Positions 7,977 to 45,283 of a stretch of DNA of 64,000 bases are shown in pieces. The notes beneath the pieces were generated by a model. It made no database searches and had not been told where the DNA came from. It saw nothing but the letters and a program-made list of their open reading frames with translations. The stretch comes from an uncultured Bacillota bacterium (GTDB taxonomy: Bacteria > Bacillota_I > Bacilli_A > RF39 > UBA660): NCBI GenBank assembly GCA_905212975.1, contig CAJMGO010000007.1, forward strand, positions 1,699-65,698. Reading direction: 5' to 3'. Each line of letters starts with the position of its first letter. Position 1 is the first letter of the stretch. Both the position numbers and the translations under genes were made by a program.

Positions 7977-8053
7977 GTCTCCTTAGCTCAGTTGGCTAGA
8001 GCACGTGACTCTTAATCTCGGGGTCCAGGGTTCGAATCCCTGAGGGGACACCA
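7977..8053 (+). tRNA. tRNA-Lys (anticodon CUU)
   Basis: Manual cloverleaf. Acceptor GTCTCCT/AGGGGAC. D arm GCTC/GAGC. Anticodon loop CTCTTAA. T arm CAGGG-TTCGAAT-CCCTG. Encoded CCA. One T-T mismatch in the anticodon stem. Upstream TTGAAT-16-TATAAT promoter. Confidence 0.85.
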
Positions 8054-11984: not shown

Positions 11985-12125
11985 TGTTTCTTGAAAAATA
12001 TATATTAATACCGTAGACAGTAGGTGCTATTAGCTTAATTTCCTACCGAGGATCTTAAATAAATTTTTAAGTCTTTGGCCTTACTGTGAAAAGTTAGGCC
12101 TTTTTTATACGGTGACTCTAAAAAA
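11985..12125 (+). promoter_or_regulatory. rplJ (L10) leader region with hairpin/terminator-like structure (GGCCTTACTGTGAAAAGTTAGGCC + T-run): likely an autoregulatory leader
   Basis: 180-nt intergenic region between rplA and rplJ. The GGCC...GGCC hairpin is followed by TTTTTTAT. This is the classic position of the L10 leader. Confidence 0.45.
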
Positions 12126-39412: not shown

Positions 39413-39579
39413 TTTTTTTTTAAATTTATTAATAAAACATTGTATAAAATAATAAAATTTGGTATACTAATCATGGCTTTTTCAAATACACACATTATTG
39501 ATTTTTATGCCTAGTGCCTAAATGGTGGTAATAAAAAGAAGATATAATGGAGGAAAATAACAAAAGGAGGAATGAAAAT

Positions 39580-40611
39580 ATGGCAGTAGTGTCAATGAGT
39601 TATTTATTAGAAACTGGTGTTCACTTTGGTCATCAAACTAAAAGATGGAACCCAAAAATGAAAGAGTATATTTTTACATCAAGAGATGATATTTATATTA
39701 TCGATTTACAAAAAACAGCTAAAAAAATAGAGGAAGCATATGCAGCTTTAAATAAAATTGCAGCTGATGGTGGTAAAGTTTTATTTGTAGGTACAAGAAA
39801 ACAAGCACAAGAAGCAATTGTTGAAGAAGCTAAAAGAAGTGATTCTTACTATGTAGCTGAAAGATGGTTAGGTGGAACTTTAACAAACTTCAAAACTATC
39901 AGAAGAAGAATTAAAAGATTAGAAGATATCGAAAAAATGGAAAAAGATGGAACTTTCGATTTACTTCCAAAGAAAGAAGTAATTGGTATTAAGAAAGAAT
40001 ACGAAAAATTAAACAAAGTTTTATGTGGTATTCGTGAAATGACTAAATTACCTCAAGCTTTATATATAGTAGATCCTTCTAAAGAAGAAATTGCTATAAG
40101 AGAAGCTAGAAAATTAAATATTCCAGTATTTGGTATTGTAGATACAAATTGTGATCCAGATATGGTAGATTATGTAATTCCTGGAAATGATGATGCAATT
40201 CGTGCAGTTAAATTAATTACAGGTGTTATGGCTAATGCTATTGTTGAAGCAAATGGTGGTAAAGTTGTTGATTATGTAAAAGAAGACGACAAAAATGGTG
40301 CTGAAATAATGGAAAAAGCATTAGAAACAGTAAAAAGAAAAGAAGATAGAAATAAACCAAGATTTGAAAAGAAACCATTTAACAAAGATAATAAAAGAGA
40401 ATTTAAAAAAGAATTCAAAAAAGAAGAAAAAGTAGAAAAAGAAACTAAAAAAGTTGAAAAAGTAGAAAAAGTTGAAAAAGTTGAAAAAAAAGAAGAAGCC
40501 AAAGATTTAACTAAATTAACTGTAGCTGAATTAAGAGATTTAGCTAAGAGTAAAGAAGTTAAAGGATACTCAACAATGAAAAAAGCTGAATTATTAGATG
40601 CTTTAAAATAA
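39580..40611 (+). CDS. rpsB: 30S ribosomal protein S2 with a Lys/Glu-repeat plus Rho_N-like C-terminal extension
   Basis: Canonical S2 core up to about residue 232, then about 110 extra residues. Start at the MAVVSM ATG with a GGAGG RBS. Confidence 0.9.
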
Positions 40612-41509: not shown

Positions 41510-41569
41510 AATAGGTATAAAAAATACCTATTTTTTTTTAATGTATGATATAATTAAAATGGTGATAAT

Positions 41570-42160: not shown

Positions 42161-42292
42161 AGATATAAATTACCTAATTCAATAAAGAGTTAGGTATTTT
42201 TTTTATAAAAATAAAAAATTATTTTTTTTCATTTCTTTGCAGGAGTTTTAAATATACATCTTGTATGTTTTAAGTAGGAGGTGAGAAAACGT

Positions 42293-44365
42293 ATGAAATT
42301 TCCAATTACAAGACAAGAAGGATTTAAAGATTGTGGAGCAGCCTGTCTTTCAATGATAATAAAATACTATAAAGGATATGCTTCAATGGAATACTTAAGA
42401 GAAATAACACATACAACTAAATCTGGTACAAATGCTTATCATTTAATAGGAGGAGCGAGTGATATTGGATTTGATGCTAAAGGATTTAAGGTTGATATGG
42501 AAAATATTGATTCATTAGTTTTCCCTTGTATAGCGCATGTGACACTTGATAAAAAATATAATCATTTTGTTGTTATTTATGGTGTTTCTAAGAATTATAT
42601 AAAGATTGCTGATCCAGCAAATGGTTTAAAAAATTTAAAAAGAGAAGATTTTAAAAAGATATTTAATAATGTAATTATAATACTTCATCCCTTAAAAAAT
42701 ATGCCAATTCAAAATAAGACTCAATCTTTTTTAGAATTTTCTTTTAGTATAGTAAAAAAATATAAGAAATTATTTACATGTATTATTTTATTTTCATTGT
42801 TTATTACAACTCTTTCAATAGTAACTAGTTTTTATTTTAAAAATATATATGAGGCAACTTTATCATCAAAAACTAGTATAATATTGATATTTATCCTATT
42901 TTTTATTGTTTATTTATATAAAGTATTTACTGAATATTTTAGAAATAAACTTGTTATAGATTTAAACCAAAAGATAAATCTTAACTTGACTCAAAGTGTT
43001 TTTCAAGATGTTTTGTCACTTCCGTATAATTATTTTAAAAGTAGAACTACAGGAGAAGTAATCTCTAGAATTAATGATTTAAATAGTATTAAAGATTTTA
43101 TTGGTCAATTTTTTGTTACAATTTTTGTTGATATTGTTTTAACTTTATTAGTTTCGTTAACTCTTTATTTTGTCTGTAAGCCTTTATTTTTATTTTCTAT
43201 TTTGATTATAGTTATATATGTTTTAGCATCTTTAATATTTTTAAAACTATATGAAAAAAATATTGAGAAGATTCAAAGACAAAGAGCTGATATAAATTCT
43301 TTTATGACTGAAAGTATTTCTGCATTTGAGACTATAAAAGGATTAAACTTAAAAGAAAAAATAACTAAAAAATTTAATAGAAAATACGTATTACATATAA
43401 AACAATTATTTAAGTTTAATACGATATATAATTTGGAATATTTTTTTAAAGAATTTATAAGTCAACTTGGTGTAGCTATTATGATTTTAATAGGATGTAT
43501 TCTTTTATATGAAAATAAAATAACAGTAGGTGAATTGTTAGCTTTTAATGCATTGTTTTCTTATTTACTTGAACCAATTAAAAATATTATAAATACATCA
43601 TCAAGCTATAAAGAAGCAAAAAGCGCTATAAAAAGAGTACAAGAATTACATATGGATATAAAAGATGAAGGTGTTAATGTTGCTAAAATAAAGTCTATAG
43701 AATTTAAAAGTACTAATTATTCTTATGATAATGATTTAAGTTTATTAAAAGATATAAATTTAAGAATTGATGAACGAGAAAAAATAGTTATTATGGGAGA
43801 AAGTGGTAGTGGCAAAAGTACTATGCTTAAATTAATAAAGAAATATTATCAAGCAAAAGATAATTCTATTTATATAAATGATATTAATTTAAACTCTATT
43901 ACTAAAAGTTCTATTGATTCTAAAATAGTATATATTTCTCAAAATGAAATGCTTTTTACTGATACTTTAATTAATAATATTAAATTAGAACGAAATATAA
44001 AAGATAATAACTTAATAGAAATTTGTAAATTATGTCTAGTAGATAGTATTTATAAAAATAATAATTTAGGTATTAATATGCTTATAGAAGAAAATGGTTT
44101 TAATTTATCAGGGGGAGAAAGGCAAAGAATAATTTTAGCTAGAAGTTTAGTAAATTATTTTGATGTTTTAATTATTGATGAGGGATTAAATCAAACTGAT
44201 ATAAGTACAGAAAGAAAAATACTTAAAAATCTTATTAATAAATATAAAGATAAAATTATTATTTATGTAACTCATAGAAAAAATAATATAGATTTATTTA
44301 ATAGATTTATAAATATTGAAAAAGGAGAAATAAAAATAGATGAAACCAGAAATAGATTTATTTGA
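42293..44365 (+). CDS. Peptidase-C39-containing ABC transporter (bacteriocin processing/export; ComA/LagD/SunT-like)
   Basis: N-terminal C39 domain with the catalytic Cys in QEGFKDCGAACLSMII, six TM helices, and an ABC ATPase with Walker A GESGSGKST and signature LSGGERQRIILAR. Start taken at the ATG with RBS GGAGGTG. Confidence 0.88.
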   Translation: MKFPITRQEGFKDCGAACLSMIIKYYKGYASMEYLREITHTTKSGTNAYHLIGGASDIGFDAKGFKVDMENIDSLVFPCIAHVTLDKKYNHFVVIYGVSKNYIKIADPANGLKNLKREDFKKIFNNVIIILHPLKNMPIQNKTQSFLEFSFSIVKKYKKLFTCIILFSLFITTLSIVTSFYFKNIYEATLSSKTSIILIFILFFIVYLYKVFTEYFRNKLVIDLNQKINLNLTQSVFQDVLSLPYNYFKSRTTGEVISRINDLNSIKDFIGQFFVTIFVDIVLTLLVSLTLYFVCKPLFLFSILIIVIYVLASLIFLKLYEKNIEKIQRQRADINSFMTESISAFETIKGLNLKEKITKKFNRKYVLHIKQLFKFNTIYNLEYFFKEFISQLGVAIMILIGCILLYENKITVGELLAFNALFSYLLEPIKNIINTSSSYKEAKSAIKRVQELHMDIKDEGVNVAKIKSIEFKSTNYSYDNDLSLLKDINLRIDEREKIVIMGESGSGKSTMLKLIKKYYQAKDNSIYINDINLNSITKSSIDSKIVYISQNEMLFTDTLINNIKLERNIKDNNLIEICKLCLVDSIYKNNNLGINMLIEENGFNLSGGERQRIILARSLVNYFDVLIIDEGLNQTDISTERKILKNLINKYKDKIIIYVTHRKNNIDLFNRFINIEKGEIKIDETRNRFI

Positions 44366-44798
44366 TGAATTTTATATGAATGAAATAATAATAAACCGTA
44401 AGGTACCTAAAAATACTTTAATTTATATAATAATTTTAATTTTATCTATTTGTCTTTTATTTACTGTATCTTTATTTAAATATCCTAAGTATATGACATA
44501 TCAGGGATATGTTGAAGAAAGAGGTGATTTGATTGTTATTAAGACTTATGTTAAGAGTGATGAGAATGTTTTTCATGATATAAAATATTTAATATATAAT
44601 AATGAAAAAATAAAAATAGAAGATATTAATTATGGACAAGATATTATTTATGAAAATAGTAATGAATATAAAGAGGTTAATATAAAAATAGGAAGAAAAG
44701 TAAGAGATGAAACTTATATTCAATTTAAATTATTTAAAGAAAATACTACTTTATTAAAAGAATTATACAATAGAATAAGAAAGGATTTGGTTATATGA
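44340..44798 (+). CDS. Short bacteriocin-export accessory-like protein (single N-terminal TM helix, 152 aa)
   Basis: Overlaps the end of the ABC gene (translational coupling). One TM helix. Position typical of an HlyD/LcnD-type accessory protein but much shorter. Confidence 0.5.
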   Translation: MKPEIDLFDEFYMNEIIINRKVPKNTLIYIIILILSICLLFTVSLFKYPKYMTYQGYVEERGDLIVIKTYVKSDENVFHDIKYLIYNNEKIKIEDINYGQDIIYENSNEYKEVNIKIGRKVRDETYIQFKLFKENTTLLKELYNRIRKDLVI

Positions 44799-44935
44799 AA
44801 CAATTACAAAATGATGATTTGAAAAAAGTAAATGGAGGGGCTTTTAATTGGGCTATTGCAACAGCAGTTATTGCTGGAGTTACATTTATTATAGGTGTAA
44901 TAGATGGTTACACTAGAAAGTTAGCATGTCATTAG
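44795..44935 (+). CDS. Double-glycine-leader bacteriocin precursor peptide A (46 aa; not in the ORF track)
   Basis: MKQLQNDDLKKVNGG | AFNWAIATAVIAGVTFIIGVIDGYTRKLACH. Canonical GG leader. Hydrophobic core with GxxxG motifs (AIATAV, GVIDG). ATGA overlap with the upstream gene. Confidence 0.75.
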   Translation: MKQLQNDDLKKVNGGAFNWAIATAVIAGVTFIIGVIDGYTRKLACH

Positions 44936-44945
44936 GAGGTAAAAT

Positions 44946-45104
44946 ATGAAGCAATTAAAAAAAGAAGAATTAAAAGAAATAAATGGAGGAGCATTTACTG
45001 CATCACTTTTAAATGCTATTTCAAGAGCTGGAAGTCTTATACTTGAACTTGGTAGAAGTGTAGGCTCTTCGATAAGAAGATTCATGACTAATTCGTTATG
45101 TTAA
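44946..45104 (+). CDS. Double-glycine-leader bacteriocin precursor peptide B (52 aa; not in the ORF track)
   Basis: MKQLKKEELKEINGG | AFTASLLNAISRAGSLILELGRSVGSSIRRFMTNSLC. RBS GGAGG lies 6 nt upstream. GxxxG (GRSVG). Cationic amphipathic core. Confidence 0.75.
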   Translation: MKQLKKEELKEINGGAFTASLLNAISRAGSLILELGRSVGSSIRRFMTNSLC

Positions 45105-45106
45105 AA

Positions 45107-45259
45107 AAATTATATAAGTATAAAAAGATAGTTATAATTTTAGGTATAATTATTACACTTCCTTTTACTTTACCTTTAATTACAATTATATTTAAATTTA
45201 TATTTGATGCAGGATTTTGTGTAGGAAAATTTGTGTTTCAATATGCATTAAAACCATAA
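45107..45259 (+). CDS. Possible small hydrophobic immunity protein with no canonical start codon (tentative)
   Basis: Open frame KLYKYKKIVIILGIIITLPFTLPLITIIFKFIFDAGFCVGKFVFQYALKP. Hydrophobic. Located before the locus terminator. No ATG/GTG/TTG in frame. Confidence 0.25.
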   Translation, partial: KLYKYKKIVIILGIIITLPFTLPLITIIFKFIFDAGFCVGKFVFQYALKP

Positions 45260-45260
45260 G

Positions 45261-45283
45261 GAAGCTTGATTAAGCTTCTTTTT
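45261..45283 (+). terminator. Rho-independent terminator (GAAGCTT-gatt-AAGCTTC + TTTTT)
   Basis: Read directly. It closes the bacteriocin operon. Confidence 0.65.

Follow-up and report, generated by a model that had tools for sequence, protein, structure and literature searches.

Class IIb bacteriocins, whose activity depends on two peptides, are characterized by adjacent peptide genes, double-glycine leaders of 15 to 30 residues, an ATP-binding cassette (ABC) exporter with a C39 peptidase domain, GxxxG motifs, and an immunity gene (PMC2850506). According to the accepted scheme, the peptides are exported with cleavage of their leaders, their helices pair via GxxxG motifs in the target membrane and cause leakage, and the producer protects itself with a small membrane protein (PMC2850506). 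Short single-pass immunity proteins of class IIb encoded directly after the peptide genes include CbnZ (42 amino acids [aa]), BrcI (53 aa), EnkIaz (52 aa), and AbpIM (55 aa), with CbnZ adopting an N-in/C-out orientation (PMC6957408). Here we describe a locus at positions 42293 to 45283 of a 64,000-nucleotide stretch of DNA, referred to as the window, from an uncultured Bacillota bacterium (GTDB lineage Bacteria; Bacillota_I; Bacilli_A; RF39; UBA660; assembly GCA_905212975.1, contig CAJMGO010000007.1, positions 1,699 to 65,698 of the forward strand). Five packed genes, all read from the plus strand, encode an ABC exporter, an accessory protein, two small peptides (pepA and pepB), and the product of a further short open reading frame (ORF3). 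The locus is probably an operon of the class IIb two-peptide type; judged by sequence, the features of this class that could be examined are present, the immunity gene in the form of a candidate.

The peptide pair and its relatives

The pepA gene (44795..44935, plus strand) encodes a precursor of 46 aa with the 15-residue leader MKQLQNDDLKKVNGG (44795-44839) and the 31-residue mature part AFNWAIATAVIAGVTFIIGVIDGYTRKLACH, whereas the precursor encoded by pepB (44946..45104, plus strand) has 52 aa, comprising the 15-residue leader MKQLKKEELKEINGG (44946-44990) and 37 mature residues, AFTASLLNAISRAGSLILELGRSVGSSIRRFMTNSLC. Both leaders end in NGG and fit the double-glycine consensus. Mature pepA, with a calculated mass of 3292.8 Da and a Kyte-Doolittle 19-mer hydrophobicity of 2.05, is predicted to be helical and hydrophobic and to end in a short cationic tail; mature pepB (3913.5 Da) is amphipathic, with a net charge of +3 and a hydrophobic moment of 0.67 around its GxxxG motif. 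The two motifs read GVIDG in pepA and GRSVG in pepB. When all six frames of the 64-kb window (G+C content, 25.6 %) were searched with a double-glycine-leader pattern or with family profiles, only pepA and pepB matched, so that the pair is more than what AT-rich DNA yields by chance. A preliminary description of this DNA had listed the exporter, the accessory gene, and the 46- and 52-codon reading frames, along with the leaders, the mature lengths, and both motifs. All of these are present, GxxxG being invariant in both peptide families, and its proposal of a candidate two-peptide class IIb bacteriocin is supported by the family match of pepA, the obligate pairing of the two genes, and the intact C39 exporter.

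The family match is to the profile TIGR03949 ("class IIb bacteriocin, lactobin A/cerein 7B family"), for which pepA scores 30.6 bits at a cut-off of 21.5; the match (profile positions 2-35 of 45) is confined to the leader plus mature residues 1-20. The same profile is matched by 35 of 37 pepA relatives at E <= 0.1. For pepB, on which leader match and pairing with pepA bear instead, the score of 19.6 bits lies below the cut-off and reflects leader-level similarity. The leaders also gave weak matches to TIGR01847 (bacteriocin_sig), and their best match in the Protein Data Bank (PDB), which was nonsignificant, is CtA, the substrate of PCAT1. The mature cores showed no similarity to lactococcin G, plantaricin EF/JK, or enterocin 1071 or to any solved peptide structure, and a literature search found no papers containing the pepA or pepB core motifs. 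As to the novelty of the peptides, left open in the preliminary description, pepA is placed in TIGR03949 and the pepB core outside the families of NCBIfam and Pfam.

Exact copies of pepA, pepB, the exporter, and the 152-aa accessory protein occur as unnamed gene calls on hundreds of public contigs, of which the longest measure 1.08-1.27 Mb; the earlier term "unannotated" was hence true of the reading-frame track from which it was derived but not of public data, in which both peptides are already called. Some public calls are fusions of accessory protein and pepA (185-190 aa) or of pepA and pepB (102 aa) (proteins P0151, P0253, and P0157); these are probably read-through or frameshift artefacts of adjoining genes. 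A word-indexed search with pepA returned four relatives only, and more were found by pattern scans and an exhaustive profile search, the latter yielding 327 clusters (50 % identity) at E <= 1e-3 in 1.84 billion representatives, nearly all of 44-52 aa. Overall, about 115 related loci were compared. A pepA-seeded pattern scan over one genome per species gave 35 loci, to which the window's species did not contribute; together with three closer relatives and the window, they form the pepA-seeded count set. A metagenome scan with the pepB core, for which the pattern was built from a subset of the alignment (the full pepB alignment being too diverse), gave 80 loci. The pepA-seeded loci belong to uncultured metagenome-assembled genomes labelled Bacilli, Tenericutes, Mollicutes, Erysipelotrichaceae, or Clostridium, with human, rabbit, chicken, goat, and reindeer gut among the hosts.

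In all pepA-seeded loci showing the full pepA gene (38/38), pepB follows pepA, and a C39-ABC gene precedes the pair wherever enough upstream sequence was available (33/33). Conversely, pepA lies -12 to +26 nucleotides (nt) upstream of pepB in 76 of 78 pepB-seeded loci with upstream sequence, and in the two exceptions, L055 and L079, a prophage or serine-recombinase element has inserted into pepA. Since both exceptions are insertions, we regard the pair as obligate, and this pairing is the main comparative argument for a predicted two-peptide system. The genomic flanks vary between lineages, the five-gene core being constant. In three lineages, other genes are found between pepA and pepB (L014, 8141-9924; L017, 8144-8855, e.g., a 227-aa reading frame; L025, 8132-8885), with pepB and ORF3 intact downstream of them. 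The fixed order in 38/38 and 76/78 loci, together with the presence of one conserved GxxxG and one conserved Cys in each peptide, speaks against two independent one-peptide (class IId) bacteriocins that merely share an exporter. It was also considered that one peptide might be an induction pheromone accompanying a bacteriocin, given that double-glycine exporters also handle pheromones (ComC via ComA), that ComA is the second-best structural homologue of the exporter, and that pepB shows a weak leader-level match to an induction-factor model (EntF family, E 0.048). However, no histidine kinase or response regulator is encoded within ~6 kb on either side, and pepB, with 37 residues and an amphipathic character, is unlike short pheromones. 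Peptides acting separately, in either form, are accordingly judged improbable.

Conservation within the pair is confined to few positions. In 37 unique pepA and 36 unique pepB sequences, and then in 62 and 61 further unique ones, the only invariant positions are the leader Gly-Gly, both Gly residues of one GxxxG motif, and one Cys located 0-4 residues from the C terminus, i.e., G34xxxG38 and Cys45 in pepA and G36xxxG40 and Cys52 in pepB, in which Arg44 and Arg45 are nearly invariant as well. The combination of GxxxG and C-terminal Cys is found in 99/99 unique pepA and 98/98 unique pepB sequences, and exactly one Cys occurs in the mature part of 60/62 further pepA and 60/61 further pepB sequences. 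This rule of one Cys per peptide suggests an interpeptide disulfide, for which a heterodimer mass of 7204.3 Da was computed; the literature search found no report of such a bond in a two-peptide bacteriocin. A conserved salt bridge joining the Asp of IDG in pepA to the Arg of GRS in pepB was considered and dropped, as several lineages have Gln, Lys, or Glu in place of this Arg with no corresponding change in pepA. Among near relatives, the ratio of nonsynonymous to synonymous substitution rates (dN/dS), derived from small counts and with dS near saturation, was 0.11-0.16 for pepA and 0.18-0.34 for pepB; the exporter gave 0.21, ORF3 0.34-0.61, and the accessory gene 0.39-0.79. By this measure, pepA and pepB are under purifying selection.

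The invariant single Cys lies near Thr or Ser (DGYTRPLKC in pepA of relatives and DGYTRKLAC in the window; TNSLC in pepB), as might be expected if the precursors gave rise to a ribosomally synthesized and post-translationally modified peptide (RiPP), e.g., with a Cys-derived thioether or another cross-link introduced by an enzyme encoded elsewhere. The leaders of a few relatives also match lanthipeptide or other RiPP models weakly. Such a modified product seems very unlikely to us, since genes for modification enzymes were absent from the locus and its surroundings, both in the window and in those related loci that were inspected, and since the flanks differ by lineage while the five-gene core is unchanged.

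Among the best 146 short representatives, four pepA copies lack the C-terminal Cys, and all four diverge just after the Asp-Gly(-Tyr) codons, indicating that they are disrupted genes and not natural variants. Three were traced: in L133 (598-2337) the break is followed by a serine recombinase gene, in L134 (513-769) by DNA other than pepB, and in L132 (868-1002) the contig ends just past it. In L055 and L079, the last pepA codons are left directly before pepB and encode LDGYTRPLACK and GYVRPLKCN, respectively, each followed by a stop codon. The insertions thus share one place in pepA, the conserved Asp-Gly-Tyr codons (L079, 3961-4001; L055, 3955-3995; L133, L132, and L134). A large serine recombinase is encoded on two of the inserted elements, and one has prophage genes for tail fibre, holin, and endolysin; upon insertion, the 5' part of pepA gains a new, Cys-less tail, whereas the last 9-11 codons stay before an intact pepB. 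Mobile elements seem to use this stretch, the most conserved one in pepA, as their attachment site. Since such elements disrupt pepA in several genomes, pepA is dispensable.

Exporter and accessory protein

The exporter gene (42293..44365, plus strand) encodes a 690-aa protein of the PCAT type, in which an N-terminal C39 peptidase is followed by a six-helix membrane domain and an ATPase. The three Pfam domains were detected far over their cut-offs (Peptidase_C39, 3.4e-37; ABC_membrane, 4.3e-40; ABC_tran, 6.8e-24), and the protein aligns end to end with PCAT1 (4ry2; 8e-105) and ComA (8hf7; 4e-102). The peptidase residues Gln8, Cys14 (within a DCGAACL motif), His91, and Asp107 are kept, as are the ATPase motifs, with Walker A at 502, LSGG at 605, Walker B at 625-630, and His661 in the H-loop. 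The protein is a predicted working peptidase-containing ABC exporter that would cut after Gly-Gly.

The accessory gene (44340..44798, plus strand) encodes a single-pass membrane protein of 152 aa that belongs to an uncharacterised family, with lengths of 128-166 aa among its members. The AlphaFold2 model features an N-terminal membrane helix, a small beta-barrel, and a C-terminal helix (predicted local distance difference test [pLDDT], 79.9). No Pfam family was found for the protein, and it did not match the NCBIfam profile NF045999 (MAG1140 family, Mycoplasma); 10 of 19 relatives, in contrast, match nearly the whole of this profile with 13-29 bits at a cut-off of 35, which indicates distant homology without membership. 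The Mycoplasma counterparts of the exporter and the accessory protein carry the neighbouring NCBIfam numbers NF045998 and NF045999 (comparison with the window and with the relatives L011, L018, and L021), and no functional paper on these Mbov_0121/MAG1140 counterparts was found in the literature search. With regard to the membrane-fusion proteins of the HlyD/LcnD/ComB type, neither a match to the HlyD family nor the fold consisting of barrel, lipoyl domain, and coiled-coil hairpin was detected. A match to AvtR (E 7.6e-4), obtained in a PDB search with the accessory profile, was judged compositional and rejected.

That the accessory protein acts as a minimal adaptor for the exporter is a weakly supported suggestion. 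Of 33 related loci with the ABC gene, 18 also contain the accessory gene and 15 lack it, so that it is not essential to the system. Within the species, nearly all nucleotide differences in the accessory gene alter the amino acid; comparison of 44340-44798 of the window with L001-L003 and L046-L051 gave nt/aa differences of 7/7, 6/5, 5/5, 2/2, 6/6, 4/4, and 6/4. In the exporter gene of the same strains, about half of the nucleotide differences do so. By this pattern, the accessory protein may be under relaxed or diversifying selection.

ORF3 and the limits of the operon

The preliminary description counted four genes and overlooked a fifth, ORF3 (45098..45259, plus strand), whose ATG overlaps the pepB stop codon (ATGTTAA) and which is translationally coupled to pepB. 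Its 53-aa hydrophobic product, a candidate immunity protein by position, size, predicted topology, and conservation, has a Lys-rich N terminus followed by a single, strongly hydrophobic helix; a GxxxG motif in the C-terminal segment is invariant. No gene caller reports ORF3 in the window's species; it is intact in 9/9 strains compared. An ORF3-like gene overlapping the pepB stop was found by profile in 15 pepA-seeded loci, and by eye in ~5 more, and ORF3 was detected in 55/80 pepB-seeded metagenome loci. A Cys lies within three residues of the end of ORF3 in 13/17 and 34/44 relatives.

Profile comparison with hhalign of mature pepB and ORF3 (98 and 56 sequences, respectively) gave a probability of 95.7 %, an E value of 1e-8, and a score of 38. 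For comparison, 200 column shuffles scored 8.1 on average (standard deviation, 1.8; maximum, 16.1), and the reversed alignment scored 13.7; the first alignments had yielded a probability of 88.5 %. The aligned parts are the last 26 columns of mature pepB (...ILDLGRSLGSAIRRxxxxxxC) and the last 26 of ORF3 (...IIFxxGxxVGTxIRxIxxxxIC). Consistently, the best non-self match of the ORF3 profile over all frames of the window is pepB, and no similarity of ORF3 to pepA was detected by profile comparison. Owing to this homology to the pepB core, ORF3 appears to be a membrane-anchored paralogue of the second peptide that lacks a leader. Since short single-pass immunity proteins are established for class IIb, a role in immunity is the natural reading of ORF3, and we consider it likely, by analogy and from its sequence, that ORF3 is the immunity gene of the locus.

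On the 5' side, a terminator-like hairpin (42171..42196, plus strand), consisting of a 10-pair stem followed by a T run, ends the upstream RDD-family gene and marks the boundary of the bacteriocin unit. No sigma-70-like promoter was called on the plus strand of 42197-42292; the promoter of the unit must lie within 42197-42276. A GGAGG sequence at 42277-42281 is located 11 nt 5' of the exporter ATG at 42293, and an alternative GTG start at 42281, falling within this GGAGG, would give a 694-aa form that is not among public gene calls. The preliminary description had portrayed a tightly packed unit with ATGA overlaps, GGAGG ribosome-binding sites, and a clean terminator. The packing on one strand holds, but an ATGA overlap is found only at the junction of the accessory gene and pepA, the exporter and accessory genes overlapping by 26 nt. 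GGAGG precedes the exporter gene and pepB, with a regularity that had been overstated: the pepB copy (44935-44939) overlaps the pepA stop and ends 6 nt before pepB, within the 10-nt spacing of the two genes. The terminator-like hairpin (45258..45281, plus strand; 10-bp stem, 4-nt loop, T-rich tail) does exist; it begins at the ORF3 stop codon, thus following ORF3 and not pepB, and its folding energy of -10.1 kcal/mol (z = -2.2 versus shuffles) is modest.

Rfam matches in the 64-kb window comprise only an L10 leader (11993-12115) and one tRNA (7977-8050), so that no Rfam element lies near the bacteriocin locus. The neighbouring genes are rpsB, tsf, the RDD-family gene, and those for RNase J, yabP, yqfD, ybeY, cdd, era, and recO. 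Two extra genes, for a 190-aa protein and a NUDIX hydrolase, are present between tsf and the RDD-family gene in L001 (1487-2639) and L002 (1489-2641); the window strain (41510-41569) and L003 do not have them upstream of the locus. In ribosomal protein S2 (39547-40611; 354 aa), a Lys/Glu-rich repeat tail and, at the C terminus, a Rho_N-like domain are present, the domain call being based on precomputed Pfam matches to the same gene in other strains.

Proposed mechanism and comparison with described systems

In the mechanism we propose, pepA and pepB would be made with their 15-residue double-glycine leaders, and the C39 domain would cut after Gly-Gly during export, possibly with the help of the small membrane-anchored beta-barrel of the accessory protein. 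Outside the cell, the hydrophobic helix of pepA and the amphipathic, cationic helix of pepB would pack via their GxxxG motifs, and the pair would insert into the membrane of a competitor and cause leakage; the C-terminal Cys residues, one per peptide, may form a disulfide clamping the pair. ORF3 would shield the producer in an N-in/C-out orientation, with its single helix as the anchor and its copy of the pepB core exposed on the outside, where it could capture pepA or the target of the pair and thus block pore formation, i.e., provide immunity by mimicry.

Several observations weigh against this assignment. The exporter scores 418.4 bits against NCBIfam TIGR01193 at a cut-off of 523.85 bits, and 343 bits against NF045998 (Mycoplasma Mbov_0121 family) at a cut-off of 500; because both scores fall under the cut-offs, it is regarded as a divergent family member. 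Searches of NCBIfam, Pfam, and solved structures gave no match for the core of pepB. ORF3 was not detected in about a third of the loci, and the ORF3 of the window is without the C-terminal Cys typical of its relatives. The gut habitat in which the putative interpeptide disulfide would need to form is anaerobic. Finally, the locus is found at one site, between the RDD-family gene and the RNase J gene, in 24/24 long contigs of the species that were read and that carry this RNase J, whereas bacteriocin loci often vary between strains, so that a fixed site is unusual for them. Its position amid housekeeping genes, the near-identity of the mature peptides across strains, the small genome (~1.1-1.27 Mb), and the fact that Mycoplasma, for which no bacteriocin is described, has families homologous to the exporter and the accessory protein would fit non-antimicrobial peptides that serve the producer itself, as membrane-active signals or cell-envelope factors with a housekeeping-like function in a reduced genome. 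We regard such a function as unlikely, given that pepA belongs to a curated bacteriocin family, that the layout with a small downstream membrane protein is the canonical one of bacteriocin and immunity genes, and that pepA is, as judged from its disruption by mobile elements, dispensable.

If the class IIb assignment is true, this class gains a large family, with at least 327 clusters when grouped at 50 % identity, whose hosts are uncultured bacteria with small genomes from the gut of humans and farm animals; next to nothing has been learned about how these bacteria compete. The peptides, with 31 and 37 residues and unmodified by prediction, are easily synthesised, so that their activity is testable without culturing the producer. 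More tentatively, the family could represent a distinct subtype, in which a disulfide clamps the pair, ORF3 acts as a decoy partner for pepA, and the Asp-Gly-Tyr codons of pepA serve as an attachment site, such that the toxin would be silenced by lysogeny and could be regained upon excision. Should the Cys clamp and the decoy immunity be true, they would provide a simple, designable pairing and immunity rule for two-peptide bacteriocins.

The exporter shares with PCAT1 of Clostridium thermocellum and ComA of Streptococcus the order of the three domains, the catalytic Cys, His, and Asp, and the oxyanion Gln, whereas the substrates of these proteins are unlike those of the exporter described here. 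The partner of ComA is the large, HlyD-like ComB; here, it is a 152-aa protein, or there is no partner. The C39-ABC transporter of the Mycoplasma Mbov_0121 family is similar to the exporter, yet the latter remains under the curated cut-off. Lactobin A and cerein 7B contain two Cys residues each and could form an internal disulfide, in contrast to the single Cys per peptide in the present family, of which pepA lies over and pepB under the cut-off of TIGR03949. ORF3 resembles CbnZ, BrcI, EnkIaz, and AbpIM in length, position, the single predicted helix, and the expected N-in/C-out orientation, a likeness by description only; we know of no report that any of these four is homologous to its own bacteriocin peptide, as ORF3 is. 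Adjacent peptide genes, double-glycine leaders, GxxxG motifs in both peptides, and one helix in each are likewise features of lactococcin G, plantaricin EF/JK, and enterocin 1071, and lactococcin G also has a C39-ABC exporter and an accessory gene in the peptide operon (PMC2850506). The present locus differs from class IIb loci of the lactococcin G type by its unrelated mature cores, the invariant single C-terminal Cys of each peptide, an accessory protein from another, non-HlyD family, and an immunity candidate that is homologous to the second peptide; moreover, its hosts are uncultured low-GC gut bacteria and not lactic acid bacteria.

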